A stretch of DNA of 64,000 nt, taken from IMG/VR virus record IMGVR_UViG_2713896899_000007, positions 7,041 through 71,040 of that record, one strand, 5' to 3'. The notes under the pieces are model-generated. The model did no database searches, was not told the DNA's origin, and worked only from the letters and a program-made list of their open reading frames with translations. How positions within the stretch are numbered: position 1 is the stretch's first letter; each line of letters opens with the position of its first letter. Position numbers and translations under genes: made by a program. Shown in pieces: positions 29,234-57,976 of the stretch. This DNA is from a virus. Taxonomy: Duplodnaviria; Heunggongvirae; Uroviricota; Caudoviricetes.

Positions 29234-29438
29234 GATTAATTCCTTATCGTAAATAACAAATTGTTTTCTTGTTGGCGTTAATTATCGTTGTACGAATAAG
29301 GCGTCAAAGTGGAAAGTTGCGGTAGCCGGACGGGAACAGGTGGGTTTGTCGGTTGCCTGGAGGTAAGAGGTTGGTGTTTTTAGCCTGCGGGGAACAGGAT
29401 GGTCATTTAAGGCCACCAGCGTTAACTGGTGGCGTTTG

Positions 29439-30137
29439 TCATGCTGGAATCATATCTAATTGAAAAGATTCCATTATATATGTTGGTTCATCGATGTAGT
29501 CCTTCAGCCTATTGTCAAATGACTCAAGCGGATTGTATGGCGGATGATGCCGCTCCGAGTATTCATTTAAAAGATGCCCCATTATCAGTTCGATACCCAT
29601 CTCTACTCCTGAAACTCCGAACCATACATTGTGCGTTAGTTGCTGGGCGTCTGTATCCAGTACGCGAACGCCATCAACAAGATTTATTAGATTCCTGTGG
29701 TTTTCGTGTACTGTAACCTCTCCGCTGGTTAAGTCTATTTCAGCGAGAAAATATGGTCTTTTGCTTCCGTCGGACTTTTTGAAATGACCGTCATAAGCGA
29801 TAGCAAACCACGCTTTACTAAAGTCCTTGTTGGCGTAAGTGGTGCACATACAACTAGGATAATCATCAATGTTAAACCAATCAGGAAACGGATCATCTTT
29901 AGACGAGCCAGCAAAATCATCAGCTAGTTCGTAGCTAATGTCTGGGTTGTACTTGCTGACAAAATCATCTACATCCTCTACATCCTCAACACCTTTCCAA
30001 ACTTTACATCTCTCCGACCAAAAGAATCTCGCAATATCCGAAATGACTGGGAAACGTTTTTCAATTGAATTTATCAACTCTGCATGTTCTTTAAGAGATT
30101 TACGCTTGTTGATAAGCTTCTGAAGATGCGTACTCAT
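29439..30137 (-). CDS. Hypothetical early protein
   Basis: 232-aa ORF; conserved promoter motif plus GATAAT at 30150-30211 upstream. Confidence 0.45.
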   Translation of the reverse strand: MSTHLQKLINKRKSLKEHAELINSIEKRFPVISDIARFFWSERCKVWKGVEDVEDVDDFVSKYNPDISYELADDFAGSSKDDPFPDWFNIDDYPSCMCTTYANKDFSKAWFAIAYDGHFKKSDGSKRPYFLAEIDLTSGEVTVHENHRNLINLVDGVRVLDTDAQQLTHNVWFGVSGVEMGIELIMGHLLNEYSERHHPPYNPLESFDNRLKDYIDEPTYIMESFQLDMIPA

Positions 30138-30188
30138 TTTTAATTCCTCGTTTGTTTTTGATGTGATAATTATCGCAGTCAGATTAAG

Positions 30189-30211
30189 GCAGAAAACAAA
30201 TTGTTATCGGG
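30189..30211 (-). promoter_or_regulatory. Early promoter/operator motif instance
   Basis: GCAGAAAACAAATTGTTATCGGG, with GATAAT-like hexamer downstream in the transcription direction. Confidence 0.45.
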
Positions 30212-30251
30212 CATAAGAAAATGGCGCGGTTTACGCGCCATTTAAAGAGGA

Positions 30252-30647
30252 TTAAGCGAATACGCTTTCAGGGATTAAGGTGTCAGCAGGAATGCCGGAG
30301 GTAATACGCAGACCGTACTGACCAATCCAGGTGGTGCTGGTGTTCAGGCTGGAGGTGAATACGGAATTAACCATATTCATCATGGTTTCAAACACCTCTT
30401 CATCAACCTGGCGGAAGTAGTTCTCGATTTTCAGCAGCAGCGGGTCAGTTGCATCGAGAATGGACTGGTATTGCGTCGCGTACTCGCCGCCGGAGGCATC
30501 ACCTTTACGCACGATCGTACTGGCCTGTACTTCGGCACCAGTTTCGGTGTTGTACGTAACAACGGTGATTTTTGCCACATTCTTACCTTCGGCGGTTTCA
30601 GAGGCATAGTAAACATCAACTGTCAGTTTTTCGCGTTTAACGGTCAT
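30252..30647 (-). CDS. Hypothetical early protein
   Basis: 131-aa ORF following terminator 30712-30739. Confidence 0.45.
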   Translation of the reverse strand: MTVKREKLTVDVYYASETAEGKNVAKITVVTYNTETGAEVQASTIVRKGDASGGEYATQYQSILDATDPLLLKIENYFRQVDEEVFETMMNMVNSVFTSSLNTSTTWIGQYGLRITSGIPADTLIPESVFA

Positions 30648-30711
30648 TTCACTCTCCGTAGTGTCTTGGTTATTTTTCTATTTTATAGCCGTAAGTATGT
30701 ACTTACAATAC

Positions 30712-30739
30712 AAAAAAGCCCCGTAAGGATGGCGGGGCT
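30712..30739 (-). terminator. Rho-independent terminator after gene 30774..31085
   Basis: minus-strand GCCCCGCCATCCTTACGGGGC followed by U6. Confidence 0.6.
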
Positions 30740-30773
30740 GTCGTACTGTCGACTAATTACCACTTGCACATTA

Positions 30774-31085
30774 TCAGGCTATTGCCATCACTGATGCTCT
30801 CTGAATTTCTTGTTGGGCCACGCGGTTAACTTCCATCAAAGCCAGTTCGAGCTGATGTTCCGGCCACATTCTTTGAAATGCCACCCAGCCTTTTCCACGC
30901 TGGCGACGAACATTCATTACATAACGAGTAAAGGTGTTTTTATCGAAAGACACCGCTGTTTCACGGAACAGACGAATAGAGGTTCCATTGGCAACGATGT
31001 CCAGCAAAGTTAATTGAGCAACTAGCGCAGGCTTCTCTTTTCGCTTCTGGTCTTTGTCCAGACCAAGAACCAATGATTTTTTCAT
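30774..31085 (-). CDS. Hypothetical early protein
   Basis: Start moved to ATG 31083-31085 (MKKSLVL) so the gene follows leader motif 31095-31120 and an ACGGAG RBS. Confidence 0.4.
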   Translation of the reverse strand: MKKSLVLGLDKDQKRKEKPALVAQLTLLDIVANGTSIRLFRETAVSFDKNTFTRYVMNVRRQRGKGWVAFQRMWPEHQLELALMEVNRVAQQEIQRASVMAIA

Positions 31086-31238
31086 CACAACTCCGTAAAC
31101 AACTTGTTTTCTCAATGGCGTAAATAATACCAGTAAGAAAACGGCTACAAAGCATAATGATCAGGTGCATGATCGATATGCAGGTTCCTCCCTGCGGCTA
31201 TAGAGAAATTAAGCCAGCATTGCTGGCTTTGGTTGAGG

Positions 31239-31568
31239 TTACGCGAATACTTCAAGAAACTCCTGAACGTCCCAATGCTGGACAAGGTGAAGATAGACCT
31301 TAGAAATCACGTCATTCTCGCTATCGCATGTGAAGTAGTACTTCTGGCTGCGGTTGTATGTGTCCACACAAAATTCGCTCATATCCATAAAGTCAGCATC
31401 TTCTCCCATGTCGCAAATCATCAAAGCAGGTGCGTCATCACGAGTCATCAGCTCAAGCACCCACCGCGAATTGATCAGAGTGGAAGACCAACCTTCCAGC
31501 TCACAGAACTGGTCAAACTCTTTTTGAGTCAATTTCTTAATTTGGTTGATGTCGATATGTGCAAACAT
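31239..31568 (-). CDS. Hypothetical early protein
   Basis: Start set to ATG 31566-31568 (MFAHID) with AAGGA RBS; the track start ATG lies inside the promoter motif. Confidence 0.4.
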   Translation of the reverse strand: MFAHIDINQIKKLTQKEFDQFCELEGWSSTLINSRWVLELMTRDDAPALMICDMGEDADFMDMSEFCVDTYNRSQKYYFTCDSENDVISKVYLHLVQHWDVQEFLEVFA

Positions 31569-31580
31569 AAAGCAATCCTT

Positions 31581-31614
31581 AAACAACATGTTTTCTTATT
31601 GGTGTTATTATCGC
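31581..31614 (-). promoter_or_regulatory. Early promoter/leader motif instance
   Basis: minus-strand GCGATAATAACACCAATAAGAAAACATGTTGTTT then AAGGA RBS. Confidence 0.45.
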
Positions 31615-31926
31615 AATAACGCACAGGCGAAAAAGGATTTTATTCCGGTGAATGTGGTTTTGGCAGTGAGTTTTCAGGTTCAGTACCGAGTACACTTTTT
31701 ACATTATTCTGATTTAGTGGCCGAAGATGGCTGGTGGGCAGAATAATCCTCTCCCCGAAAACCTACTGAAATCGATTGTGACCCGCTGGCTGTCTGGCAC
31801 AATTACGCTGTAGCTGGGCATTCAGAGGGAATCCAGCGGTAAGTTCGCCTGCACGTGAGCGCCTCTCTTCTTACCGCACATTACAGGTGGGTAGCCGCAA
31901 CTCTCCCTCACGCTATACCGGTACGC

Positions 31927-32060
31927 CACCGTTCCTGAACCGGCATCGAGCCTTTTCCCGAAATCCACACAGGCAACTCTACCGTTTCCCTGAAAATCCC
32001 CAGCCGTTCCCCGAAGGCAACCCAGCCGTTTCTGTAGCGGGATGCAGCCTTTCCCTGTAT
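31927..32060. repeat. Second array of CCGTTTCCC-type repeats (6 copies)
   Basis: ACCGTTCCTGAA, GCCTTTTCCCGAAATCC, ACCGTTTCCCTGAAAATCC, AGCCGTTCCCCGAAGG, AGCCGTTTCTG, AGCCTTTCCCTG. Confidence 0.6.
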
Positions 32061-32169
32061 GGACCGAAGGCTGACCGTAGGGGTGTTACGGGGGATAAAA
32101 TCAGGAGTTGAATAAATACGAAAAAGGAGGCGACACCCCTACTTCCCTCTCCACTTATACATACCAGGC

Positions 32170-32950
32170 TTCTTCGCTATACATGTTGTGTTTTCTTCGT
32201 GTTTTATCTGTCTCAACCTCTCTATAGGCGTTAATGCTCACTCCTACCAGAACGTTCTATACGGCGACTATTTCTGTTGGTGGATTAGGTGTGTTGTTTT
32301 CTCTGTCGGTGTATGTGGTTTCGTTCGTTTTGCGGTGGTTCTTCTATGGGGTGTTCTCGTCGTTTTGGTGATTGTTCTTCTCCGTATATGGAGTAATGGC
32401 AGGTGGGCGATTGCTTTCGTTATTGTGTTTGAGTTGTTTGTCTGGAGTGTGTGAAAGGCTTTTGTAGTTATTCGTGTATTGGGTAATGGCGTTTCCCGTG
32501 ATTGTTATGTTTCGTGTCTTTTGGGATTGAGAGAAACCTTGCGGTTACAGGCTTCGTTGGGGTTTCAGTGATTCTGGTGTTTCTTCGCTGTTTGGGGAAT
32601 GGCGTGTCGTGGGTATCGCGCGTGTGAATGTTTTCGGATTGCCTGTGAAAGTTAGGTTGGTTATCCGGTAGCCTGGGAAGAAGAGGTGGGTCTTTTCGGT
32701 AGCCTGCCATAAAGAGGTTGGTTGTTTTTGGGAATGGCATGTGTGTTATTTAGTTGTTTTGTTATGCCTGAAAATAAGTTGTTTATATGGTTGTGTAACG
32801 CAACGGGAGCGATTTTGAGCGTGTGTTTTTGTTGGTAGTGTGTTGAGTCGTCTGTGGTGAAAATTGGACGCTGTGGAGCTGTCTGCTGCGTAGGATTACG
32901 GGTATAAGAAGTGATGTGTGAAAACGTCAATTTTTTAGACCAAATCGGGA
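32170..32950. other. ORF-poor, strongly G+T-skewed repeat-rich region (candidate origin, centromere-like site or noncoding RNA locus)
   Basis: Top strand about 80-85 percent G+T in spot counts; at least 10 same-orientation GTTGTTTT(C) half-sites; four GGnAATGGC repeats at about 100-bp spacing (about 32395, 32485, 32598, 32730); only low-complexity ORFs. Confidence 0.5.
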
Positions 32951-33136
32951 GAAAGCGTTGATGTTTCGTTGATCTGTTATTTAGTTGTTTTCTTATTGGT
33001 ATAAACAACTGTAACCTATTGATATTTAAGGATGTGATTGCAGGCATGGAAGGGGAGTAGTGGCGATCAACGGATTCTTATAGAAAAGAATCAAATTGTG
33101 ACCGCCATTATCAACGGTTTGAATATGTTTGCAGAT

Positions 33137-33445
33137 TTACCAGTTCCAGCACTCAAGCCCTTCAACGACCGGCGCACCACAATCAAAATGTACAGAGTCA
33201 AAGCCTACATCAAGTACTTTCTGAATGTTAGCAATCGCGCCTTCGGATATACCATATCGACGCAAGTCGTCTTTCCAGACATCATCCTGTAACCCGGCGT
33301 GGACAATACAACCGCCATCAATTTGTGAAACCCAATCCAGCTCATTGCTTGCGATCATGAATCGGCGAGCATCTTCCTCTGATGTATGAGATGAACTGAT
33401 CAATGCCACCTGGTAGGCTTGGGTAATGTTCAACATTTCAACCAC
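33137..33445 (-). CDS. Hypothetical early protein
   Basis: 102-aa ORF; upstream both motif variants and a GATAAT hexamer (33448-33510). Confidence 0.4.
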   Translation of the reverse strand: MVEMLNITQAYQVALISSSHTSEEDARRFMIASNELDWVSQIDGGCIVHAGLQDDVWKDDLRRYGISEGAIANIQKVLDVGFDSVHFDCGAPVVEGLECWNW

Positions 33446-33496
33446 TCCAAAACAAGTTGTTTTCTTATGTGGCTTATTATCTCTAACAACAAAAGG

Positions 33497-33636
33497 CAGA
33501 AAACAAATTGTTTTAGGTACTGTGTAAATCAGAAGGGATTGTGTCTATATGAAAATGCCCGGCGTGTTGCCGGGCATTGCGAAGAGAGGTTGTTTAATTA
33601 CTTAACCTGGTGGCCAGGTTTAGCACCGGCATCCGG
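33497..33636. repeat. metG 3'-end repeat copy 1 (promoter motif + terminator + last 13 codons of metG)
   Basis: 140 bp, about 88 percent identical to 34367-34506; carries [12 protein letters not shown]-stop in frame. Confidence 0.8.
33554..33578 (-). terminator. Terminator hairpin within metG-end repeat copy 1 (serves the degenerate HD gene)
   Basis: AATGCCCGGC...GCCGGGCATT stem with U-run on minus strand. Confidence 0.5.
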
Positions 33637-34327
33637 CTGCAGGATGGGAGGTTACGTTCGCGCTATGTTGATATTCTGATTGACGCCATTTGTGCCAAAT
33701 CATCTCCTTATAGGATTCATATTGCGTTCGGTACTCTGGCTTCAAGTCAGATATGCCTTTATTCACTACCGCTCGTACGTTTACTAATAATTCGTGCTCA
33801 ATGCCTTTACTCTCTAAATATTCTACAACACCAGCATCGGGGCCAATTGCCCTGCCGTTAAAGACCATTTCCAGCATAAGCTCTGTTTCAGCAAAATAGA
33901 TAGGTGAGGAACCAGGTGCACACAGCTTAATAGCAGTAAGATTGTCCAACAGGTCGGCCAATTTAATCATTCGCGTCTGCATATCCAACGTCTTTTGCAA
34001 TTCGCGAACATTAATAATGAATCTCGCAAGACTATCGCCGTCGTCTGGTTTGGCAACGTTTGCCAGCGCCAGTACCATCTCAGCTACACGATTCCCGAAA
34101 TACTCGCGTACCATTTCGATAGTGATATGGGTATCTTCAATAACACCATGTAATAATGCAGCAGCCTGCATTTCGACAGTGCCTCCGTGCCAAGCAACAA
34201 TCTCACGCACAGAAACTGGGTGTGTAACGTAGTCTTCCCCCGTATATCTACGCTTCTTACCTACACCACCATACACTCCAACGGCAAACATATGAGCTTT
34301 ATCAACAATCGACATAATTTGCTCCAT
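33620..34327 (-). CDS. RelA/SpoT-type HD hydrolase paralog with substituted catalytic residues (probable pseudo-enzyme)
   Basis: About 65-70 percent identical to the hydrolase at 42687..43328, but AH-GQ became VY-GK and both HD became HG (WHGG, LLHGVIEDT); C-terminus runs into the duplicated metG 3' fragment in another frame. Confidence 0.6.
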   Translation of the reverse strand: MEQIMSIVDKAHMFAVGVYGGVGKKRRYTGEDYVTHPVSVREIVAWHGGTVEMQAAALLHGVIEDTHITIEMVREYFGNRVAEMVLALANVAKPDDGDSLARFIINVRELQKTLDMQTRMIKLADLLDNLTAIKLCAPGSSPIYFAETELMLEMVFNGRAIGPDAGVVEYLESKGIEHELLVNVRAVVNKGISDLKPEYRTQYESYKEMIWHKWRQSEYQHSANVTSHPAAGCRC

Positions 34328-34366
34328 TATTTTGTTAATACTGTTACTCTAACTGATAATAGAACG

Positions 34367-34506
34367 CAGAAAACAAATTGTTTTAGGGGCTGAGTAAATC
34401 AGAAGGGATTGCGTCTATATGAAAATGCCCAGCAATACGCTGGGCATTGTGAAGAATGGTTGTTTAGTTACTTAACTTGGTGGCCTGGTTTAGCACCAGC
34501 ATCCGG
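34367..34506. repeat. metG 3'-end repeat copy 2 (authentic metG terminus and terminator)
   Basis: Direct repeat of 33497-33636, offset 870 bp. Confidence 0.8.
34420..34448 (-). terminator. metG rho-independent terminator (within repeat copy 2)
   Basis: AATGCCCAGC...GCTGGGCATT stem followed by UUUU on minus strand, 20 bp after metG stop. Confidence 0.6.
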
Positions 34507-36501
34507 GCTTAACAGGAAGATATCTTTCCCGCCGGGGCCAGCAGCCATCACCATGCCTTCGGAGATACCGAAGCGCATTTTACGCGGAGCCAGGTTAGCC
34601 ACCATAATTGTGTGACGACCAATCAGTGCCTGTGGGTCTGGATAAGCAGAACGGATGCCTGAGAAGACATTACGCTTTTCACCACCGAGATCCAGTGTCA
34701 GGCGCAACAGTTTGTCAGAACCTTCAACAAACTCCGCGTTTTCAATCAGCGCCACACGCAGGTCAACTTTGGCGAAGTCGTCAAAGGTGATGGTTTCCTG
34801 AATCGGGTCGTCAGCCAGTGGGCCAGTAACTGGCGCGGCAGTAGCTTTCACTTCTTCTTTGGATGCTTCCACCAGTGCTTCCACCTGTTTCATATCGATA
34901 CGGTTATACAGTGCCTTGAACGGATTCACTTTATGGCCCAGCAGCGGTTGCTGGATACCATCCCAGGTCAGTTCTGTATTCAGGAATGCTTCTGCACGTT
35001 CAGTCAGTTTCGGCAGTACCGGTTTCAGATACGTCATCAGCACGCGGAACAGGTTAATGCCCATAGAGCAAATCGCCTGCAGATCTGCATCGCGACCTTC
35101 CTGCTTCGCCACCACCCACGGAGCCTGTTCATCGACATAGCGGTTAGCCAGGTCAGCCAATGCCATGATTTCACGGATAGCTTTACCAAATTCGCGGCTT
35201 TCCCATGCTTCGCCAATCACTTCAGCGGCATCAGTAAAGGTTTTGTACAGTTGCGGGTCAGCCAGTTCGCTTGCCAGCACGCCGTCAAAACGCTTGTTGA
35301 TAAAGCCTGCATTACGGGAGGCCAGGTTAACCACTTTGTTAACAATATCGGCATTCACTCGCTGAACGAAATCCTCCAGGTTGAGATCGATATCATCAAT
35401 GCGCGAAGAGAGTTTCGCAGTGTAGTAGTAACGCAGGCTGTCAGCGTCAAAATGATTCAGCCAGGTGCTGGCTTTAATAAAGGTGCCGCGAGACTTGGAC
35501 ATCTTCGCACCGTTCACCGTCACATAGCCATGAACAAACAGGTTGGTCGGCTTGCGGAAGTTGCTGCCTTCCAGCATGGCAGGCCAGAACAGACTGTGGA
35601 AGTAAACGATATCTTTACCGATGAAGTGGTACAGCTCGGCGGTGGAGTCTTTCTTCCAGTATTCATCGAAGCTGGTGGTATCGCCGCGCTTGTCGCACAG
35701 ATTCTTGAAGGAACCCATGTAGCCAATCGGTGCGTCCAGCCAGACGTAGAAATATTTACCCGGCGCGTTCGGAATTTCAAAACCGAAGTAAGGTGCGTCG
35801 CGGGAGATATCCCACTGTTGCAGACCAGATTCAAACCACTCCTGCATTTTGTTTGCCACCTGCTCCTGCAACGCACCGCTGCGGGTCCATGCCTGCAACA
35901 TTTCGCTGAAAGAGGGCAGATCAAAGAAGAAGTGTTCAGAATCACGCATTACCGGGGTAGCACCAGAAACCACCGATTTCGGCTCGATCAGTTCAGTCGG
36001 GCTGTAGGTCGCGCCACAAACTTCACAGTTATCGCCGTATTGATCTGGCGCTTTACATTTCGGGCAGGTGCCTTTCACAAAACGATCCGGCAGGAACATG
36101 CCTTTTTCCGGGTCGTACAACTGAGAGATAGTGCGGTTTTTAATAAAACCGTTCTCTTTCAGGCGAGTATAAATAAGCTCAGACAGCTGGCGGTTCTCTT
36201 CGCTGTGCGTCGAGTGATAGTTGTCATAGCTGATGTTAAAGCCTGCGAAATCAGTCTGGTGTTCCTGACTCATTTCGCCAATCATCTGCTCCGGTGTGAT
36301 ACCAAGTTGCTGTGCTTTCAGCATGATCGGCGTACCGTGGGCATCGTCGGCACAGATGAAATTAACCTCGTGGCCGCGCATTCGCTGGTAACGAACCCAG
36401 ACATCAGCCTGGATGTGCTCCAGCATATGGCCGAGGTGGATTGAGCCGTTAGCGTACGGCAGCGCGCACGTCACCAGAATTTTCTTCGCGACTTGGGTCA
36501 T
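34468..36501 (-). CDS. metG: Methionine--tRNA ligase
   Basis: 677 aa from ATG 36499-36501 ([26 protein letters not shown]...KMSKS...[10 protein letters not shown]); near-identical to E. coli MetG over full length as I recall it; the track ORF is extended upstream. Confidence 0.95.
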
Positions 36502-36658
36502 AGTAGGCATTACTTCTTTGTAGTGAAAAGGGGCTTGATAGTAACAAAATGGCCTTATGTCTGCCATGTGATAACAGCATTTCTCATAAATGATTAAATG
36601 TCGTAGCTGGAGTACACTACAAGGCGACAATTGCGCAAATTAAAATAAAGGAGACGGG

Positions 36659-37796: not shown

Positions 37797-38186
37797 CTAC
37801 ATCACAGGACAATCATCAAACTCGCCACTTCTTGCGTCGTTGATAATGTGAGTGATCACACCAAACACGGCATTGCTGCCCGTGCATCCATCGTCATCCT
37901 TTGGCAATGCTTCCTTCTTACCAGTTCTTAAATCCTCCAGATGCTGACGTGGATACTTCCGGTATCTTTTTACGCGATATTCCCCATCCAGAGCGCATAC
38001 AAGCAGAGAACCATCAACCGGGGTAAGTGAGGAATCGACCACCAGCAATGCGCCCTGCAATATTCCCTCACGATGATGGCTGTCAGCCGCTCTCATGAAG
38101 TAGGTCGCTGAAGGATGTCTAATTATCTGCTGATCAAGAGAAATACGGCTCTCAGCATAATCCGCCGCAGGAGAAGGGAAGCCCAT
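37797..38186 (-). CDS. UmuD'-like S24 peptidase (begins at the position equivalent to the UmuD Cys24-Gly25 cleavage site)
   Basis: MGFPSPAADY... aligns with UmuD from Gly25; Ser (AADS) and Lys (RVKR) of the catalytic dyad retained; in-frame stop 5 codons upstream of ATG; LexA box 20 bp upstream. Confidence 0.75.
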   Translation of the reverse strand: MGFPSPAADYAESRISLDQQIIRHPSATYFMRAADSHHREGILQGALLVVDSSLTPVDGSLLVCALDGEYRVKRYRKYPRQHLEDLRTGKKEALPKDDDGCTGSNAVFGVITHIINDARSGEFDDCPVM

Positions 38187-38202: not shown

Positions 38203-38222
38203 TACTGTTCATTTATACAGTA
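38203..38222 (-). promoter_or_regulatory. LexA operator (SOS box) upstream of UmuD'-like gene
   Basis: TACTGTTCATTTATACAGTA = CTGT-N8-ACAG palindrome, 16/20 match to E. coli LexA consensus; about 20 bp upstream of ATG 38186. Confidence 0.75.
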
Positions 38223-38358
38223 TACATGAAAGAAGCTCACTCAGTGCAACTGATCGGTACATAGCACCAGACAAAGGAACATTATTTTCTCGAACAAGAA
38301 AAGGTAGAAAACAAATTGTTTAAGGCCACAGCTAGTGGCCTTAATGGAGAAGGGATGC

Positions 38359-43328: not shown

Positions 43329-43447
43329 TCTTAACTCCGTTGTTTTCTAGTTGTGGTTATTTTCACAAATAAGAAAAGGTAGAAAACAATTTATTTAAGG
43401 CCACAACTTATGGCCTTTATTTATTCATGCAGAAGAATTTGTAGCGT

Positions 43448-44593: not shown

Positions 44594-46279
44594 TCATTTA
44601 ACGCGTTTGAAAACGTATACGCTGACTGTGATCCCTGTGTCTTCAAACTCGTTGGTAAACGACTTCCCTCTGGCATAAACGTAATTATCCATCGTCATCC
44701 AGTCCAGTATTGGCGCAGTGCCCGGCAATACTGCTACAAGACGCCCGCCGACTTTCAGATGCCCCAGCGCAGCCATCGTGTGCTCTCTATGACGACCAAG
44801 CGAGTACGGCGGGTTCATAACGATTTTGTCGAACTGATAACCTGCGTTGTCCTCAGACCACTTTATGAAGTCGCAGCAAATCGTGTTCGTATACCCTTTT
44901 CCACGCAGGATATCAGCGAAGAGAGGTGCGATTTCTATGCAGGTAACATCTTCCAGATCGGCGTTAATATAGGCCAGAAGATCCCCACGTCCGGCTTGAG
45001 GCTCCAGCAGCTTCTCACCAGGCTTCAATTCAGTGGCTCTGGCAACGTACTCAGCAATCAAGCGTGGGGTAGGGTAGAACTGGTGTGATTTTGTATCCGG
45101 TATTAAACCGGTAGCCACAATCGTATTTAGCGTATGGCCGATGTCATACGGGAACTGCCAGTGCTTTTTCTCCTGCACGCCGCCAATGAAGCTCAGTGTG
45201 CGCTCAAGCTCTTCCACCTGCGACTTCTGGAGAGCTGAATCAGAGAAGTACCATACGCCTTTGTCTTTGCTCAATCGCCCGTCACGAAGCGCAGTGCGAA
45301 CCGGCACGGAGATCGTCTTCTGGATTAACCCGAACTGCTTTGGTGCCCGTGTTTTTGGCGCAGTGCGGCATGGCGCGGGGATTGCAGCAGGCATACTGTA
45401 AGCCAGCACCTCATTCAACTTCCAGGCCACGTCAGGATGTATTTCAAAGTGAACGTTGCCGTTCTTGAACATCTTCACGCGCATCAGATTTCCATCGACG
45501 TTCATCCAGTCACCGGTCTGGCAGTCGTTTGCCCGATACGCAGCTGATAGCACCTCAGCAGTGCGGTTGATGGTAATAAATTCTTTGTGCGCGAAGAAAT
45601 GAAGCAAGACACGCAGATCGTCGATGTAGTCCTCTTTGCGATAGTTCACGCTAACGCTGTCCCGCCAGAAATCAGAAATGCAGTCAGCGATTATCAGCCG
45701 CTCGCTGAAACCGTTTGTCTTATTCGTCTTGTGCGCAGGACTCAGCGCCTTAAACAAGCCATACACGCGCTCAGAGAGATATTTGTGCCTGTCATTCAGC
45801 AAATTAAGCATCGTGGGTATGACCGTTTCTGCTTTGAACTCCGGTACACCAACGAACTCTTTAACCTTCATCTGGTAGCCGGTTCTGTCAGTTTTGATGA
45901 CTTCCTGTTTGCCCTCTATAAACTGCTCGCGCCACTCATCTCGACGGGAAGCTGGCATGATCAGCAAAACGTTAGTCATGTCCGTGACCTTCCTCCAGTA
46001 CTCGGCCCAAATATTCTGTTTCACCCATTCCAGATCGACTTTATCCAACCAACCTCGATTTAAACGCGAGCGATCTTCATCTGGTCGATGGTTTAGTCGC
46101 AGCAGGCGATTAATCATGTTGTGGCGTTCGTCGCCATAAACGAAGTCGTGTACCTGATACATGAAGGCGATCTCTTTCTCGCACTCGGCCACGATTTCGT
46201 GGATGACATTCATTTCCTGACGATAGTCGATAGCCGTGTTTGAGCTGGCATCGTCGATGATGGAAAGGGCTGTATTCAT
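44594..46279 (-). CDS. Large protein with C-terminal gamma-class N6-adenine DNA methyltransferase domain
   Basis: FYPTP motif, AdoMet motif I LLEPQAGRGDLL, catalytic motif IV NPPY in the C-terminal 180 aa; about 380-aa N-terminal region of unknown function. Confidence 0.6.
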   Translation of the reverse strand: MNTALSIIDDASSNTAIDYRQEMNVIHEIVAECEKEIAFMYQVHDFVYGDERHNMINRLLRLNHRPDEDRSRLNRGWLDKVDLEWVKQNIWAEYWRKVTDMTNVLLIMPASRRDEWREQFIEGKQEVIKTDRTGYQMKVKEFVGVPEFKAETVIPTMLNLLNDRHKYLSERVYGLFKALSPAHKTNKTNGFSERLIIADCISDFWRDSVSVNYRKEDYIDDLRVLLHFFAHKEFITINRTAEVLSAAYRANDCQTGDWMNVDGNLMRVKMFKNGNVHFEIHPDVAWKLNEVLAYSMPAAIPAPCRTAPKTRAPKQFGLIQKTISVPVRTALRDGRLSKDKGVWYFSDSALQKSQVEELERTLSFIGGVQEKKHWQFPYDIGHTLNTIVATGLIPDTKSHQFYPTPRLIAEYVARATELKPGEKLLEPQAGRGDLLAYINADLEDVTCIEIAPLFADILRGKGYTNTICCDFIKWSEDNAGYQFDKIVMNPPYSLGRHREHTMAALGHLKVGGRLVAVLPGTAPILDWMTMDNYVYARGKSFTNEFEDTGITVSVYVFKRVK

Positions 46280-46292
46280 AATTACACCATTA

Positions 46293-46326
46293 AATAATTT
46301 GTTTTCTTATTGGTGTAATTATCGCA
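46293..46326 (-). promoter_or_regulatory. Early promoter/leader motif instance upstream of methyltransferase gene
   Basis: minus-strand GCGATAATTACACCAATAAGAAAACAAATTATTT, near-identical to 31581-31614. Confidence 0.45.
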
Positions 46327-46420: not shown

Positions 46421-46987
46421 TTAGAGTGCGTATTGCGTTTTGTGCGGCTGCTTATTCAAGTCATGGCGATGCGTGAGCTCCCGCATCATGTCTTCAAGGC
46501 GACTCTTTGTGTCGTCGAGCTGGTCGGCCATTGCACCTAAAAGCTGGCGAACGGCCATCGGATTGTCGCTGTTTAGTGATGGCATTTTATAACCTGCTTT
46601 AGAAGACATAAGGTTAATTGCAGACATCAACATCGTTAGAGAGGATTTAAGCCCGGCAATTTCACGATCTTTGCTGGCAATAATCGTCTCACTTTTGTTA
46701 CCGTCATGAGTTCCTTGAGTCTCGCTCACCATATCCAAAGTCGCTTGCAACTTATCGGCTCTCTCTTTTTCAGCAAGGTAATGAACGCCGAAATGATGTG
46801 CTAAAGCTACAACCTGAGTTGGTTCTTCAAAGGTGGAATTAAAATTAAGTACTGTAAACAGTCTCTCAAATATGGAAACGTCTTCTGTTCCCCGAACAAT
46901 GCCTAACATTTTGACAAGTTCATTAGCATCCATTTCTTCGAATAGGGCGTTTTGTTCATCAGCTATTGCTTTGCATTTCTCGCACAT
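46421..46987 (-). CDS. Hypothetical early protein
   Basis: 188-aa ORF with conserved leader (motif 47003-47028, AAGGAAAACAC before ATG). Confidence 0.4.
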   Translation of the reverse strand: MCEKCKAIADEQNALFEEMDANELVKMLGIVRGTEDVSIFERLFTVLNFNSTFEEPTQVVALAHHFGVHYLAEKERADKLQATLDMVSETQGTHDGNKSETIIASKDREIAGLKSSLTMLMSAINLMSSKAGYKMPSLNSDNPMAVRQLLGAMADQLDDTKSRLEDMMRELTHRHDLNKQPHKTQYAL

Positions 46988-47002: not shown

Positions 47003-47028
47003 CTTAAACAAGTTGTTTTCTTATTGGC
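47003..47028 (-). promoter_or_regulatory. Early promoter/leader motif instance
   Basis: CTTAAACAAGTTGTTTTCTTATTGGC, followed in the gene direction by AAGGAAAACAC-ATG. Confidence 0.45.
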
Positions 47029-47284
47029 TTTATTGTGATGTGGCATATAAGGGGAGCAAGCTAAACGTAAAGGTGCAAACTCTCTATTTTGGTCAACGAA
47101 ACACAAGGGCCATTTGGCCCTTGTCATTAACACTTTGCTTTACGGACTAGCGGATAGGCGAAGTAGATCGCCAAACCAATGAGGACGCCATCAGAAATGA
47201 CAGACATCATCTTTCCCGTAAAATCCACCAACACCGCCATCACCAGAAGAGCAATGACGGTCACAAGCCGGAATCTCTCAAGCA

Positions 47285-47710
47285 TTAGAGATAAGCATCC
47301 AGTGACAACTGAAGCGCCTGGGCGATCTTTTTCAGTGCCTGCTCTTCTTGTTCACCAATGCCGTCCTGGTCGGCAATATCAAGGCACAGACACAGAACAT
47401 CGACCGCCTCTGGAGTGCCCGCAATATCAGCCAGCTCACGCATAGCCTGTGCATTAGCGGAACGAGGGGACGCTTCGTAACGAGCACGGATATTGGCGCT
47501 CATTTGGGCAATCTCACCAGCAAACGGAGAAAACGCAGGCAGAGCTGCAATTGTCTTCTCAAGAATGGCAATTTCTTTTGCGTCACATGTGCCGTCGGCA
47601 TAGGAGATCATGTACGCGCCCCACACGGTGGCCTCAACCGCATCACGGTTCTCCATTTTTTTGACTTCGATAACTGCTTTACGAGTTTTCTTTTTGAAGA
47701 AACCTAACAT
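47285..47710 (-). CDS. TerB-like domain protein (putative)
   Basis: 141 aa; helical with YADGTCDAKEIAILE and DQDGIGEQEEQALKKIA segments typical of TerB-fold proteins; conserved leader upstream. Confidence 0.35.
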   Translation of the reverse strand: MLGFFKKKTRKAVIEVKKMENRDAVEATVWGAYMISYADGTCDAKEIAILEKTIAALPAFSPFAGEIAQMSANIRARYEASPRSANAQAMRELADIAGTPEAVDVLCLCLDIADQDGIGEQEEQALKKIAQALQLSLDAYL

Positions 47711-47765
47711 GTGTTTTCCTTTTGTTATTTGTCAAAACAAGTTGTTTTCTAGTTAAATAAATTGC

Positions 47766-49289: not shown

Positions 49290-49817
49290 GCGTGCGTGTA
49301 ATAATTATTAAAATAAACAAATTACTTCCCAGTACAGGTTTTTATAAACCTGAACTGAACGAACGAAGTGAGTGAAGTTCACCTCGAACGAAGTGAGAGG
49401 TTGTCTTTTCAGGTAATACTCTCCCAGGGAGGTGAGTATAAAATTCCTCACCAACCTGGTCGTTTCATAACCTGAAAAGCTATGGTCTAAGTCTACTGCC
49501 AGCTTAGACTTGGGAAGTTATGGATGACAGCACCCCAGAACCGAGATCTTCCCACACTTTATGAAGGGGAGTACTGGATTCAACCTCTCGAAACACCCCA
49601 GACTCGACAATCATAAAGTGACCCTTGTCTCTGCTCACTTTGGTTCCCCCTTCCCCGACACCTAAACGGCACCGGTTCTACGCTGGTAGTGAGCTTTTTT
49701 AAACCTGACGCCAGTGACGCTTACCCCCACCCATCAGGTCGAGTCTCCAGTCTATGACTGGAAACTATCAGATCTTAGCACTTACAATTCATCTTATGAA
49801 TAGTTTGTACTTATCTA

Positions 49818-50827: not shown

Positions 50828-51009
50828 CTTCTTTCTCGATAGGTAAGTGATTACCTATTTTTGCATTTGATTTTATGTATGGCAATCAAATAAAACACGC
50901 CAGAAATGCGAACAAGAAGCTCTCTGGCGCGTTTTTGTGGTGCTGGGTATGGGTTAGCTTACCCAGCACTATAAAGCTCTCTATGGGCTTTATTTTCAGT
51001 AGGGGAACG

Positions 51010-51819: not shown

Positions 51820-51979
51820 GTAAGTCTCCTTCTGTTTGGTTACATTTGCGTTTCGATGGCTACATTTTGACTAAACCTATCAGGCGGAAAAGTATTAAAT
51901 ACAGGCAGGAAATGATTGAAAGGCGACTGTTCTTTAAAAGAAAGCCTACTTTAAACTCTCTTTAAAGTAGGCTTTTGCT

Positions 51980-52537: not shown

Positions 52538-52546
52538 CAGAACTCC

Positions 52547-52966: not shown

Positions 52967-53027
52967 TTTTTATCCTTAACCCATTTTGAGAGTTTTATTG
53001 TCGCAATGTCGAAGAGGCGAACAATTT

Positions 53028-54148: not shown

Positions 54149-54558
54149 TTGCTCACCTCATAGATGACCGGTCTATGATGAGAGTCAGCTAAAGCGGCAC
54201 GGAGTCGAGGATCGTGCACCAGCGCAGCGATAAGCAGATCGCCTTTATGCTCCGCTAATGTGCGCTTAATATGCTTCTCATAACTGGTGCCATTCGGTAC
54301 AAGATGAAGCCAGTCGTAATCAACGCCAAAATCTTTCAGCCATCGTTTAGTGGGCGCTTCAAGAGTTTCAGAGCGGCTACTGATAAGCACCACTTCAGCC
54401 CCTGAGCGAGCAAAACCACGCAACATACGGCTGGTGGGGAAAATGAGTTCATCACCGGCAATGAGCTGGCCTGCATCCGCGTCAGATACAGATTTACGAT
54501 GGCTGGTATTTGCCAGCACACCTTCAATTTCGCATAAGACATACATACCTCTTGCCAT
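54145..54558 (-). CDS. Hypothetical protein (possible HAD-like phosphatase)
   Basis: Start set to internal Met 54558 to avoid a 47-bp overlap with thyA; no canonical DxD motif seen. Confidence 0.35.
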   Translation of the reverse strand: MARGMYVLCEIEGVLANTSHRKSVSDADAGQLIAGDELIFPTSRMLRGFARSGAEVVLISSRSETLEAPTKRWLKDFGVDYDWLHLVPNGTSYEKHIKRTLAEHKGDLLIAALVHDPRLRAALADSHHRPVIYEVSK

Positions 54559-54559
54559 A

Positions 54560-55690
54560 TCACACCGCCACTGGAACCTTGATCCACGGTAGAGGGTCAT
54601 AGCCAAGAATCAGAATATCGTCCCATTTGAAATCATCCAGCTCAGACCATTCATGAGGGAAAATAACGACCGGATCTGAATGCTCTGGAGCCTGTCGTTT
54701 CATTAGCTCACACACACTTTCCATGTGGTTATTGTATAAATGCACGTCAAAGCCAAAATGCACAAATGCACCGGCCATGTGACCCGTAATCTTCGCGAGA
54801 AAATGAGTGAGAATGCCATAGCCAGCAATATTGAATGGCATACCAACAAAAGTGTCTACGCTACGCTGTACGAGGCAGGAGTTGAGGATGCGTTTGGGGA
54901 TTCCAAGTTCATCCAGTTCAGTTTCAGTAACACTGCCGTCCATCTCCAGATCGTATAGCATCTTGGTGTAGATAGACTCGTAACCGAGGCGACTGTGTTG
55001 AAGACCAATGTCTGTTGCCATCGTTAAACGAGTTTCAAAATCAAGCTCACGACTCCACAAAGAGAAGGCAAAGTGGCAAGGTGGCAGTTTCATATCCTCA
55101 AGCTCGCCTACGTTCCATGCGTTAAGCATGATGCGACGATCGGTAGGGTTCGTGCGCAGTGTATCGACAATACGCTGTAGCTGATCGATTTCACGGGACA
55201 GCACTACGCGATCTTCACTGATACCCAGGTATCCCTCGACTTTGTACCCGCGTTCACGGAAAGTATCGATCTTGCTCAGATATTCACTATGGCTCACGAT
55301 GCGGGTATCTTCCCATCGACGCCACTGCTTACCGTAAACCGGCCCCAAATCGCCATTCTCATCGGCCCATGCATCCCAAATTTTAACGCCGTTATCCTTG
55401 AGAAATTGGATGTTGCCCGTGCCTTTCAGATACCACTCAAGTTCGACAAGTAGTGGCTTAAGATTTACCGCCTTTCCAGAAATAAGCGGCACAGTCCCAC
55501 CAGTAAGCATGTAGTAAGAGGGAACGTAGCAGGTGCTTAAAGTACCAGTGCCTGTGCGATCATCAGCCTGCACGCCGCTTTTAAGCACCGTCTCAATAAC
55601 TTTTGCATACGATGCGTTTGTTACCTGACCGTTCGTATGCTCACGATTCAAAAGGAGTGACACAAAAACCTCACAAAGATAAGTAACCAC
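54560..55690 (-). CDS. thyA: Thymidylate synthase with two large insertions
   Basis: DRTGTGTLS, DENGDLGPVYGKQWR, catalytic PPCH, FNIAGY, HLYNNH, GYDPLPWIKVPVAV all aligned to ThyA; about 35-aa and 50-aa insertions relative to E. coli ThyA. Confidence 0.8.
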   Translation of the reverse strand: MVTYLCEVFVSLLLNREHTNGQVTNASYAKVIETVLKSGVQADDRTGTGTLSTCYVPSYYMLTGGTVPLISGKAVNLKPLLVELEWYLKGTGNIQFLKDNGVKIWDAWADENGDLGPVYGKQWRRWEDTRIVSHSEYLSKIDTFRERGYKVEGYLGISEDRVVLSREIDQLQRIVDTLRTNPTDRRIMLNAWNVGELEDMKLPPCHFAFSLWSRELDFETRLTMATDIGLQHSRLGYESIYTKMLYDLEMDGSVTETELDELGIPKRILNSCLVQRSVDTFVGMPFNIAGYGILTHFLAKITGHMAGAFVHFGFDVHLYNNHMESVCELMKRQAPEHSDPVVIFPHEWSELDDFKWDDILILGYDPLPWIKVPVAV

Positions 55691-55834
55691 TTATTCATTG
55701 CGTGAGTTTACATTCATTGAGAGAACAAGACCAGACAGATAAAAAAATGGTGGCCATAGGCCACCAAAAACGAATAGTTGTTTCAGAAATTTAACGCGCC
55801 AACGCAATATACACAGATAGATAACTACCTACAA

Positions 55835-56704
55835 TTATTTTTTGATCATTCCGTACATTGCTGAGGCTTTAGCTTGCTCAACAAAGGAGGATAAATCGAC
55901 ATCACTATAGGTTGGAGACTTCAGAATCTTTCCATCGGAAATTCGAAAACCGATCATCTTATCGGTGCCATCAGCATGGCGAAATCCCAGGTCAGAAGAG
56001 TCGTATTTGCAGTTGGCCACAGCATGGCGACGCTCTTCGGCATCTGCAGGCCATAATTTTGTCATGTTGGACCGATGAATTTCGCCAACCAGCTCGACGA
56101 CATTGATACCGAGGAAATCAGCCAGTCGATAGGTCATCATGCACGCCACATAGATTTTGTTCATTACACGGCGCAGTTCCTGAATCAGCTCAGAATCCTT
56201 AACAGTCTTGTTCTCAAGTTTATCTGCCAGCTCTTCGAGCATACATGACGCCTCACGAGCTTCCTGAAATGGCATTGCCATATCATCGAAAACAGTGTTA
56301 CCAGGCACAAAAATTGTCTGCATAAAGCGATCAATGCTCTGTTCCTGCGTGTAATAGGTCATGCCGGTAGAAATACCACCTTTGATGGCGACCATCGTAC
56401 CAACACCAACGTATAAAAAGTCGGCCATTGCATCCAGCAGTTGCTCAATATCCCCATTCATTGCGGCTGGAATACCTTCCACTACAGCTTCTTCATGAAT
56501 CAGGCTTGCACGGAGACGAAGCAGCTCTGGTGTCGGCATAACGCGTCTCGGATGCTGGAAGAGTTCATGAAACTGATCGACCATCTTGTAAATACTTTCA
56601 GTGGCTACACCATGGCCTTCATGCAACTCATATGGTTCTGGCTTAAATCCAATGAGTCGATCGGTGGCAAGTTTCAGGTGGTCAGTCAGTTTGGTAAAGT
56701 TCAT
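55835..56704 (-). CDS. Hypothetical protein
   Basis: 289-aa ORF between thyA and nrdB. Confidence 0.4.
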   Translation of the reverse strand: MNFTKLTDHLKLATDRLIGFKPEPYELHEGHGVATESIYKMVDQFHELFQHPRRVMPTPELLRLRASLIHEEAVVEGIPAAMNGDIEQLLDAMADFLYVGVGTMVAIKGGISTGMTYYTQEQSIDRFMQTIFVPGNTVFDDMAMPFQEAREASCMLEELADKLENKTVKDSELIQELRRVMNKIYVACMMTYRLADFLGINVVELVGEIHRSNMTKLWPADAEERRHAVANCKYDSSDLGFRHADGTDKMIGFRISDGKILKSPTYSDVDLSSFVEQAKASAMYGMIKK

Positions 56705-56781
56705 GCTAGTTTTGTTCCTTCTTAATTCTTGTGATCCATTGTGGCCCAGCGTTGCCAGGCCACATAATGCTTTGTATCGGT

Positions 56782-57924
56782 TTACAGGTCTGCAAACTGG
56801 CTTAGAGAAGCCTTATCCACAGTAGAATCGATCTGACCTACCAGATATGTGCTTTGCTCTGCCTCTTGTGGTGCAATTTGCAGTGTGTCGGTTAACAACC
56901 ACTTGTTCATCCAGACCAGCGGATCGGTGGTAACCTCTGGAAATAAAGCCTTCAGGCCAAGACGATTCATAGCCAGATTGGTGCGGTATTTTACATAGGT
57001 CTTCAGAATATCCGCGTTTAAACCAATCATCGAACCGTCTTTGAAGAGATAGTCTGCCCAGTTCATTTCTTGTTCGGCGACTGATTTCATGGTGTCGTAA
57101 ATGACGTTTTCTTCATCAGCAGCAATCTCTTTCCACAATAAACCTTCGCGACCGGTACGCATGAAGCGGATCATGCGTTCAGTTCCTTCGCAATGCAGAG
57201 CTTCATCACGGGCAATAAAGCGCATAATTTTGGTGTTACCCTCAAGCAACTTCCGTTCGCCAAAGGCAAACGTACATGCAAAACTTACATAGAAACGGAT
57301 CGCCTCAAGCGCATTAATGGACACCAACGTGCGGAAAAGCTGACGGTGCAAAGGGTATGGCTCCCAGCCATATTCATTTACGTACAGACGTTCAAACTCC
57401 TTCTCACCTAACGACTGGCGCTCGCAGGTCATCCCATAAAGCCTGTCATATTCAGCAGAGATACTGATCGCTCGGTTGATGATTTCTTCATCCGTAACAA
57501 TACCGTCAAAAACAATGCTCGGATCGTCCACCATGCCACGAATAATGTGGGTGTAGCTGCGGCTATGGATAGTCTCAGAGAAAGACCATGTTTCAACCCA
57601 CGTTTCCAGTTCAGGAATAGAGATAAGCGGCAGCAACGTTGCATTTGGGCTACGTCCCTGAACTGAATCGAGTAACGTTTGATAACGGAGATTGCTCAGA
57701 AAAATGTGACGTTCGTGGTCCCGCAGCTTCGTGTTGAAGTCGATACGATCGCTCGAAATATCAACTTCTTCCGGCCGCCAGAAGAAAGACAATTGACGTT
57801 CAATCAACTTTTCAAAATCACGGTATTTTTGCTGATCGTAACGTGCCACGTTGACAGATTGTCCGAGGAACATAGGCTCTTTGGTTGCATCATTAGCACC
57901 CAAACGGAACGTTGAATATGACAT
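56782..57924 (-). CDS. nrdB: Ribonucleotide reductase class Ia beta subunit
   Basis: [34 protein letters not shown]...FFWRPEEVD closely parallels E. coli NrdB; start set to ATG 57922-57924. Confidence 0.9.
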
Positions 57925-57950
57925 GTGTTTTTCCTTTTGCTTTTTGATGT

Positions 57951-57976
57951 GTTTAAACAAGTTGTTATCTTATTTG
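57951..57976 (-). promoter_or_regulatory. Early promoter/leader motif instance upstream of nrdB
   Basis: GTTTAAACAAGTTGTTATCTTATTTG, followed by AAGGAAAAACAC-ATG. Confidence 0.45.

Follow-up and report, generated by a model that had tools for sequence, protein, structure and literature searches.

Bacteriophage P1 is a phage-plasmid with many similar operators at separate promoters, through which one protein controls many transcription units. The P1 operators are asymmetric 17-mers (ATTGCTCTAATAAATTT) bound by the 283-amino acid (aa) C1 protein. The stoperators of mycobacteriophage L5, recognized by the gp71 repressor, are ~20–30 copies of a short asymmetric site in small intergenic gaps that block elongation in an orientation-dependent manner and at variable distance. 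MarR operators are 16–20-bp (pseudo)palindromes over the -35/-10 region or the start, where a winged-helix dimer represses one divergent operon by occlusion, and the lambda CI/Cro operators are palindromic dimer sites over promoters, clustered in two regions. Phage N15 has dispersed palindromic SopB sites near promoters. Here we analyze a palindrome that recurs in a 64,000-nucleotide stretch of a Caudoviricetes virus (IMG/VR record IMGVR_UViG_2713896899_000007, positions 7,041 to 71,040), called the window throughout. The palindrome, AGAAAACAAnTTGTTTTCT with the invariant core AAACAAnTTGTTT, is probably the operator of a dimeric regulator that the phage-plasmid itself encodes and that governs a dispersed regulon, most likely by negative control, with the 71-aa protein gp37 as candidate binder.

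The window palindrome shares with the P1 operators the dispersal of many copies over separate promoters, but it is a symmetric 13/19-mer at two fixed positions that does not fit the asymmetric P1 consensus, and its candidate binder has 71 aa rather than 283. The ~20–30 short copies in small intergenic gaps recall the L5 stoperators, and the downstream copies would likewise act in transcribed DNA, but the sites here are palindromic and keep a fixed distance to the -10 hexamer. In size and placement the site resembles a MarR operator, and the element encodes two predicted MarR-like winged helices; these candidates, however, are half as large as MarR, at 71–88 aa, without the long N- and C-terminal dimerization helices and the ligand pocket, and the regulon is genome-wide. 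By analogy with lambda, a small Cro-like repressor made early is one plausible reading, but ~20 sites are dispersed here, and the CI-like protein CYRAN_45 of phage Cyrano has another palindrome (GGTAAGtgCTTACC) and is absent from phage SSU5, which keeps all sites. N15 resembles this system in being a phage-plasmid with dispersed palindromes near promoters and a link to late-gene expression; it has four sites and a partition protein, whereas ~20 sites are promoter-locked here and do not follow the ParB-like genes in distribution. The dispersed-operator principle is already known from P1 and L5 and has not previously been described for the SSU5-type family. In the literature that we searched, neither this motif nor any mapping of transcription starts in that family is described; a 2026 preprint of apparent relevance concerns an unrelated 49-kb phage-plasmid.

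A palindrome recurs in the intergenic DNA of an SSU5-type phage-plasmid

As judged from its sequence, the window covers ~60% of a phage-plasmid of roughly 108 kb, a siphovirus of the SSU5 type. Escherichia phages PhiR41_1, Cyrano, and CMS-2020a match its 29–49 kb region at 95–97% identity, and Salmonella phage SSU5 and the Klebsiella phage-plasmids are more distant relatives. The 13-bp core AAACAAnTTGTTT was searched as the pattern AAACAANTTGTTT, which has 8 exact matches in the window compared to 0.00 expected and 16 matches with at most one mismatch compared to 0.51 expected (maximum of 3 in 100 shuffles). A symmetric 19-bp position weight matrix (PWM) agrees, giving 15 sites of at least 18 bits where shuffled sequences give 0–2 hits of at least 12 bits. 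These results confirm the recurrent motif described in a sequence-only reading of the window. Every full site lies in intergenic DNA ahead of a minus-strand gene, between 19,029 and 57,970, and the 19 kb of structural genes contains zero copies. Fifteen of the 16 positions named in that reading are full sites in this sense; the remaining one, at 32974, is a half-site cassette only (32985–33008), and the two sites at 19.0 kb fall outside the 29253–57976 range that it gave for the regulon. There is one additional weak site with its center at 32778.

The full element on the coding (minus) strand is AGAAAACAAnTTGTTTTCT. PWM positions ±1 to ±6 are conserved in 27–30 of 30 cases, and the center base is random (A7 C8 G8 T7). 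Three outer bases are conserved on one side only, and that side always points toward a -10-like hexamer. The changes in variant copies are one-sided and not compensatory.

The palindrome occupies two fixed positions at predicted promoters

The copies fall into two classes by their position relative to the -10-like hexamer. Class A copies lie downstream in the order GATAAT (or TATTAT, CACAAT), N10–11 (consensus ..aCaCCAAtA), and AGAAAACAAnTTGTTT, with the Shine–Dalgarno (SD) sequence and start codon 11–30 nt further; the arrangement can also be written (GATAAT-like)-N10/11-AGAAAACAA. Class B copies lie upstream, where a GC-rich terminator-like hairpin is followed by AAACAAnTTGTTTTCT-gCCTTTT, and the distance from TTGTTT to GATAAT, TAGAGT, or GAAAAT is exactly 19 nt. 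Both geometries had been noticed from the sequence alone, and both exist with fixed spacing (TTGTTT-N19-hexamer and hexamer-N10/11-AGAAAACAA). The downstream copy had been placed at +1; if the A of CC-AATAAG, 7 nt beyond the -10 hexamer, is taken as the transcription start, the palindrome centers instead at ~+14 in class A (core +8 to +20) and at ~-38 in class B. The translation start AAGGAAAACACATG, described as often following the motif, does recur, but its exact form occurs twice (46985 and 47708) with a 1-nt variant at nrdB, so "often" was an overstatement. The sites and the elements that belong to them are as follows.

19054–19072, minus strand, center 19063: distal copy of the tandem pair upstream of terS, AGAAAACAAGTTGGTTAGC, 18.2 bits, with an orthologous copy in SSU5.
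19029–19047, minus strand, center 19038: proximal copy of the terS pair, AGTAAACAAGTTGTTTTAG, 26.3 bits, abutting a terminator-like hairpin and conserved in SSU5, pJN2-26, and pVH1-2-1.
19002–19030, minus strand: hairpin resembling an intrinsic terminator, AGAGCGC-N6-GCGCTCT with GTGTGTTTT after it, which also forms in the folding predictions and lies between the terS ATG (18991) and the double palindrome.
29251–29269, minus strand, center 29260: class A copy with GATAAT at 29281–29286; gene 28751–29233 (160 aa).
30191–30209, minus strand, center 30200: class B copy after a terminator hairpin, TTGTTT-N19-GATAAT (30169–30174, preceded by TGC); gene 29439–30137.
31094–31112, minus strand, center 31103: class A copy, 27.4 bits, with TATTAT at 31124–31129; gene start 31085 (103 aa).
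31578–31596, minus strand, center 31587: class A copy with TGC-GATAAT at 31607–31612; gene start 31568.
32769–32787, minus strand, center 32778: weak, degenerate copy of uncertain function, 14.8 bits, with weak orthologs in Cyrano, SSU5, and pJN2-26.
32985–33008, minus strand: half-site cassette TTGTTTataCCAATAAGAAAACAA (also given as TTGTTTataCCAATAAGAAAACAActaaat), right arm missing.
33447–33516, minus strand, centers 33456 and 33507: complete cassette with a class B copy (33498–33516), GATAAT (33476–33481), and a class A copy (33447–33465); gene ~33137–33433 (DUF5983-like).
34368–34386, minus strand, center 34377: class B copy, TTGTTT-N19-TAGAGT (34346–34351); start of a 231-aa gene at 34315.
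38306–38324, minus strand, center 38315: class B copy directly after the hairpin AAGGCCAC-N5-GTGGCCTT; UmuD-like gene 37797–38186.
43381–43399, minus strand, center 43390: class B copy directly after a hairpin, TTGTTT-N19-GAAAAT (43359–43364); gene start 43328.
46289–46307, minus strand, center 46298: class A copy with TGC-GATAAT at 46318–46323; DUF4942 putative methylase gene 44594–46279.
47003–47021, minus strand, center 47012: class A copy with CACAAT at 47032–47037; gene 46421–46987, start AAGGAAAACACATG.
47732–47750, minus strand, center 47741: class A copy; TciA-like gene 47285–47710, start AAGGAAAACACATG.
57952–57970, minus strand, center 57961: class A copy in front of nrdB (start 57924), with a terminator hairpin and an everted TTGTTTAAACAA repeat ahead of it; orthologs in SSU5 and pJN2-26.

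The -35 position of class B promoters is occupied by the palindrome, and no canonical -35 accompanies the -10 boxes. None of the cassettes is recovered by a consensus scan for canonical sigma-70 promoters (a TATAAT-like hexamer with a TTGACA-like -35 at 16–18 bp), and about half of the promoters have TGn ahead of the -10 hexamer. The palindrome promoters are thus predicted from their -10-like hexamers to be of a -35-less sigma-70 type. At 33447–33516 the two copies flank one GATAAT with their centers 51 bp apart, and Cyrano, SSU5, and pJN2-26 have the same arrangement. The class B promoters at 30200 and 43390 have a degenerate half-site in the downstream position. The same half-sites occur in everted order (TTGTTTAAACAA) at 57971–57985, upstream of the nrdB site, and the pVH1-2-1 lineage has extra TTGTTTTCT half-sites ahead of class B sites. 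The everted and extra half-sites are hints of higher-order or multi-dimer binding.

The palindrome is conserved while its surroundings drift

The whole genomes of Cyrano, SSU5, pJN2-26 (Klebsiella), and pVH1-2-1 (a divergent Klebsiella plasmid) were scanned for the palindrome, which yielded 20, 25, 18, and 21 sites, respectively (16 of the pVH1-2-1 sites are exact). The sites in these relatives precede the same genes as in the window and also parA, the replicative helicase operon, and cobT, all of which are outside the window. Between lineages, the 12 core positions of 8 orthologous promoters are 97% identical, compared to 40–53% for the flanks and 39% for the center. IMG/VR fragments of relatives with 45–75% protein identity keep the palindrome and the N19 spacing, and the spacer sequence differs. 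DUF4942, gp106, and gp111 of pVH1-2-1 have a class B site where the window has class A. This exchange of classes at the same genes indicates selection on a site at the promoter and not the inheritance of one cassette.

The palindrome is missing from Pectobacterium Drgb1 and Moellerella pW18-2-b, which are syntenic, distant relatives with zero copies and no other recurrent palindrome. A few Drgb1 promoters keep the -10 box and the CAATAAGAAAA part of the leader (..ATAAT-N-CAATAAGAAAA) without it. In a scan of IMG/VR viral contigs, all loci with at least four sites are SSU5-like by nucleotide similarity or lie on an SSU5-sized (~112 kb) contig. The only dissimilar locus with three sites matches SSU5-like genomes at the protein level, and the few unrelated contigs with two sites were taken as chance. 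The scan of the genome collection gave, among the matches listed, only singletons at chance level. The palindrome is therefore a simple sequence marker of lineages, with the Pectobacterium, Providencia-type, and Moellerella lineages lacking it.

This distribution bears on whether the binder is a host protein. An enterobacterial transcription factor recruited by the phage would explain why the motif is identical across elements of Escherichia, Salmonella, and Klebsiella and missing from those of Pectobacterium and Moellerella, which belong to other families, and the phage-encoded binder is so far a candidate only. The confinement of IMG/VR loci with at least four sites to SSU5-like or SSU5-sized elements argues for a phage protein instead, as does the existence of phage winged-helix proteins with a matching distribution. 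We know of no E. coli regulator with this consensus and consider a host factor quite unlikely.

The two ParB/Srx-family genes in the operon upstream of terS (ParB-like proteins at 21013–22379) raise the alternative that the palindromes are centromere or packaging sites, as for the SopB sites of N15. Drgb1 and pW18-2-b keep the ParB-like genes without having a palindrome; partition needs no fixed spacing to a -10 hexamer, and twenty sites are far above what it needs. A partition or packaging role for the sites is highly improbable.

Upstream of terS, Drgb1 (~18150–18247) and pW18-2-b have in common a TATAAATACTATGGGA...CACTGCGGAAAAAGGAATTTTCGAGTG block with a TATAAATA box, which is the T4 late-promoter consensus. 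Late-gene control may differ between palindrome-bearing and palindrome-less lineages.

The cassettes coincide with module junctions

Homology between the window and Cyrano, SSU5, or pJN2-26 ends within 60 nt of a palindrome at 12 of 64 breakpoints compared to 2.6 expected, with the caveat that intergenic DNA in general attracts homology ends. The cassettes behave as module junctions. A 144-nt repeat of terminator and operator, at 33493–33636 and 34363–34506, flanks an inserted 231-aa gene (33620–34315) that has a class B promoter of its own and sits between metRS and the next gene; Cyrano is without the insertion. The inserted gene has ~70% nucleotide similarity to SSU5 85603–86232, annotated as a metal-dependent (HD) phosphohydrolase. 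Accessory genes may join the phage program by arriving with a cassette or by recombining at one.

The junctions could be taken to mean that no dedicated regulator exists and that a portable terminator-promoter-leader cassette has spread by duplication and recombination, in which the palindrome is the U-tract of the terminator or the initial transcribed sequence. The duplication, the clustered breakpoints, the upstream copies that directly follow GC-rich hairpins, and the CAATAAGAAAA leader part that persists in Drgb1 without the palindrome all fit such a cassette. It does not account for two arms conserved symmetrically at 97% as the rest of the cassette drifts, for a site that moves relative to the -10 hexamer between lineages at the same gene, or for a promoter-distal arm that has no obvious promoter or terminator role. 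We regard this explanation as very improbable.

Only two sequences in the window match the LexA box pattern (CTGT-N8-ACAG), at 30956 and 38205, and the palindrome is a different motif from the LexA box. The LexA box at 38205–38220 (CTGTTCATTTATACAG) is directly upstream of the UmuD-like S24 peptidase gene (37797–38186) and downstream of its class B promoter. The UmuD-like gene thus appears, from this arrangement of motifs, to be under both SOS and palindrome control.

The palindrome has the properties of a DNA site and not of an RNA element

Folded as a transcript, the palindrome would give a 5–6-bp stem of A·U pairs closed by a loop of 1–3 nt. The folding energy of -2 to -3 kcal/mol in the 6 leaders folded is not beyond that of shuffled sequences, and the mean z relative to controls is +0.29 for 42 class A leaders taken from four genomes. 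Rfam has zero matches over the whole window at the gathering threshold. The stable hairpin, conserved loop, and covarying stem of nut/boxB-like RNA features were not found, and class B copies are outside the transcript of their own promoter. The one-sided variants, the random center, the leaders without a structure signal, and the class B copies outside the transcript lead us to read the palindrome as a double-stranded DNA site, predicted from its arm symmetry to bind a dimer.

An RNA element, whether nut/boxB-like, a translational operator, or a 5' stabilizer, would draw on the class A copies, which are transcribed if the -10 assignment is right, and on the leaders at 46298 and 33456, which show extra pairing between a 5' CACC and the SD sequence. 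It is the least probable of the explanations considered given the small loop with a random base, the shuffle-like stability, and the absence of compensatory change.

The sequence-only reading had described the palindrome as an operator for a dimeric repressor. The dimer operator is supported, indirectly but consistently, by the symmetric, near-invariant arms around a free center, the conservation footprint (97% compared to ~45%), the fixed -10 spacing, and the recurrence at about 20 promoters per genome; the repressor sign is what we infer.

Most site-bearing genes are near background in a lysogen

Transcript levels of Cyrano genes in an Escherichia coli LF82 lysogen are available in a published S1 table with a median gene level of 9.8 (PMC9928086). 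Of the 15 genes that come first after a site, 12 are near background at 5.7–12.9: terS 7.1, CYRAN_47 7.8, CYRAN_58 5.7, nrdB 12.9, CYRAN_85 7.0, CYRAN_87 7.1, CYRAN_93 6.3, CYRAN_101 7.5, CYRAN_105 12.8, CYRAN_106 12.2, CYRAN_108 5.7, and CYRAN_110 6.7 (PMC9928086). The exceptions are the helicase gene (21), CYRAN_111 (25.5), and parA (49.8) (PMC9928086). The promoters clearly on in the lysogen are without a site and belong to toxin–antitoxin pairs, repA, int, CYRAN_45, and CYRAN_43 (PMC9928086). The macrophage/LB ratios of the LF82 table are unusable as a test of the regulon, as almost all Cyrano genes rise together. The expression pattern fits negative control, and an activator requirement would look alike.

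Positive control would have an activator at ~-38 substitute for the missing -35, in the manner of a class II activator or a MotA box, with the downstream copies being secondary or autoregulatory. The promoters are without a -35, the upstream copy lies over that position at a fixed N19, and divergent relatives mainly use the upstream position; in addition, the site-bearing genes are silent in the lysogen, where gp37 and the second winged-helix protein, gp123, are not expressed. Against an activator stands the majority of copies, 45 of 68 in the pooled genomes, which lie downstream of the -10 hexamer. These class A copies cannot be upstream activator sites because the 11–30 nt to the start codon leaves no room for a promoter. 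The -38 center is also off the usual -41.5 register, and many of the -10 hexamers have a TGn that makes a -35 dispensable. Activation is an unlikely primary role, and negative control is the preferred interpretation.

Candidate regulators

The best candidate for the binder is the gp37 family (CYRAN_37, SSU5_046) of 71-aa proteins with a predicted MarR-like winged helix, an assignment that is tentative. The gp37 gene lies beyond the window, where it closes the helicase–primase–ligase operon; this operon has a class A site of its own. In all 7 of 7 elements gp37 and the palindrome occur or are missing together. The palindrome, gp37, and the Cra-like gp62 are present in the window/Cyrano, SSU5, pJN2-26, and pVH1-2-1 and all absent from Drgb1 and pW18-2-b, the absence of both proteins being the result of profile searches. 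Cyrano genes were screened for conservation in SSU5, pJN2-26, and pVH1-2-1 and absence from Drgb1, with antisense shadow open reading frames (ORFs) removed, which leaves 11 genes (CYRAN_34, a 60-aa ORF, gp37, gp38, gp61, the Cra-like gp62, RNase H, 83, 101, 106, and 111). Among them, only gp37 shows a predicted DNA-binding fold. At 56% identity overall, the family keeps one basic block, W(K/R)PKTRAKLE, invariant. Its structural model has a predicted local distance difference test score (pLDDT) of 78 and consists of a helix, a recognition helix, a β-wing, and a C-terminal helix, and Foldseek aligns the model with MarR-type winged-helix cores (TM 0.62–0.70) at weak E values of 0.04–0.5.

The sequence-only reading had put forward two candidates, a winged-helix protein encoded at 19188 and a small early protein. 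The first of these is gp123:

19188–19454, minus strand: gene of an 88-aa MarR-like winged-helix protein (gp123); AlphaFold2 pLDDT 82.8; Foldseek against the Protein Data Bank (PDB) E 1.7e-4, TM 0.69–0.76.

As judged from its model, gp123 probably is a true MarR-like winged helix, but the protein is kept in both palindrome-less lineages, Drgb1 and pW18-2-b, with an invariant recognition helix (TTKQSxQFSxRAL), which speaks against it as the regulator. The second suggestion fares better in the form of the 71-aa gp37, which is encoded outside the window, through its 7/7 co-occurrence. A homolog search with gp123 and tblastn against phage records found only SSU5-like elements and so does not discriminate between the candidates. 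None of the candidates received a functional name from sequence searches against Pfam, PHROGs, NCBIfam, and PDB; gp37 and gp123 are below the Pfam/NCBIfam cut-off and match the winged-helix core only.

A ~120-bp inverted repeat lies between the gp123 gene and the double palindrome at 19075–19197 (51-nt arms with 71% complementarity and a near-perfect inner 16-nt pair at ~19135). Both ends of the linear GenBank records of SSU5 and Cyrano fall within this repeat. The repeat may be a cos/pac region and the target of gp123, and a role for gp123 at the genome end or in packaging seems at least as likely as one in transcription control.

Three other candidate proteins were considered and set aside. 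The CI-like CYRAN_45 is absent from SSU5, where 25 sites are kept, and its own region has a different palindrome. That palindrome, GGTAAGtgCTTACC, occurs with GGTAAG/CTTACC half-sites between CYRAN_45 and CYRAN_46 (Cyrano OV696614 42575–42825, outside the window); it differs from the regulon motif and probably serves the CI-like repressor as its operator. At 26162–26686, the FljA-like "transcriptional regulator" falls into Pfam Flag1_repress (5e-81) and is likely an accessory gene rather than a regulator of the phage. The protein gp117 (24006–24284), which looks like a ribbon-helix-helix protein and is expressed in the lysogen, has predicted DNA-facing strand residues that differ (Y/H/S, A/Q/K) between genomes whose palindrome is the same, and pVH1-2-1 lacks gp117 despite its 21 sites.

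A model for the regulon

In the preferred model, one regulator would act at ~15 promoter sites in the window and ~20–25 per whole genome to form a single regulon. The regulon would comprise genes for nucleotide metabolism and DNA modification, many small genes, the terS entry to the late operon and, as seen in the relatives for DNA beyond the window, the replication and par operons. The operator would lie at one or both edges of the RNA polymerase footprint: at ~-38, where it takes the place of the -35, or at ~+14, within the first stretch to be transcribed. Binding of a dimer at -38 would cover the -35/UP region, and binding at +14 would prevent either formation of the open complex or escape from the promoter. 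In promoters with both copies, the centers are 51 bp or about five helical turns apart, and two dimers could cooperate across such a promoter. With an operator at its own operon, gp37 would be autoregulated.

The motif had been taken to define an early-gene regulon. The late (structural) operon begins with terS, which has a double site in front of it, and the site-bearing gene set is therefore not purely early. The hairpin at 19002–19030 is kept with its T-tract in SSU5 and pJN2-26, and its position suggests that entry to the late operon needs read-through or antitermination.

Several points weigh against this model. The parA operon has a site and is still 5–9-fold above background in the lysogen, and gp37 itself is at lysogen background (6.4). 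Either a tiny amount of gp37 is enough, or something else keeps these genes silent in the lysogen and the regulator works in lytic growth. The upstream site at -38 is compatible with activation as well, the double site and terminator before terS are not accounted for, and the promoter positions are set by -10-like hexamers only. The Foldseek E values for gp37 are weak. The evidence from co-occurrence is thin in that the two palindrome-less lineages may represent a single evolutionary event, and it fits gp62 and several unannotated small proteins equally.

Other features of the window

The window layout was read with the Cyrano annotation as a guide and is mostly on the minus strand.

1–19 kb, minus strand: structural/late operon, from terS (18359–18991).
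19–22.4 kb, minus strand: ParB-like/ABC-ATPase operon, whose last gene encodes the 88-aa protein (19188–19454).
22.4–28 kb, plus strand: low-GC island.
28–64 kb, minus strand: many small genes with metRS, umuD-like, methylase, RNase H, and nucleotide metabolism genes (nrdAB, thyX, folA).

The low-GC island (36–39% GC at 24000–28000, plus strand) is transcribed opposite to the remainder. It contains a full-length FljA-type "repressor of phase-1 flagellin" gene at 26162–26686 (Pfam 5e-81), which is likely an accessory gene that could influence host flagellar expression. A full-length methionyl-tRNA synthetase gene is at 34468–36630 on the minus strand, where the Cyrano annotation also has MetRS.

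A highly conserved non-coding stretch of ~500 nt is located at ~49300–49800 (minus strand). The Cyrano annotation places here a dubious 44-aa GTG ORF, CYRAN_81 (98% identical in SSU5 and 91% in pJN2-26). CYRAN_81 is expressed 12-fold above background in the LF82 lysogen (PMC9928086). An E-value search of 49.2–50.3 kb against Rfam found nothing meaningful. The stretch may be a non-coding RNA. Outside the window, CYRAN_43 (Cyrano OV696614 40268–40822) encodes a hypothetical protein of 184 aa, adjoins int and the CI-like repressor gene, and is absent from SSU5. Its transcript is ~700-fold over background in the lysogen (PMC9928086).

Implications for SSU5-type phage-plasmids

Homologs of one SSU5-like marker gene are on about 800 PLSDB plasmids, including Yersinia pestis pMT1, Salmonella pHCM2-type, and Klebsiella plasmids. 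A bolder picture would be that of an unrecognized master switch of SSU5/pHCM2/pMT1-type phage-plasmids, separate from the CI-like repressor: a 71-aa MarR-like protein, autoregulated in the replication operon, would clamp ~20 -35-less promoters at -38 and +14 and gate terS together with a terminator, and the cassettes would serve as recombination joints for new genes (the HD-hydrolase-like gene at 33.6–34.4 kb, umuD). This picture taken as a whole is doubtful. The motif is nevertheless a ready map of ~20 promoters per genome that marks nearly every non-structural transcription unit, and it gives a direct experimental handle on two or three small candidate proteins. SSU5-like phage-plasmids are very common in Enterobacterales, and their lysis–lysogeny and expression control is essentially unstudied. 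The value of the palindrome is that it opens the regulation of a widespread phage-plasmid family and not that it introduces a new mechanism.

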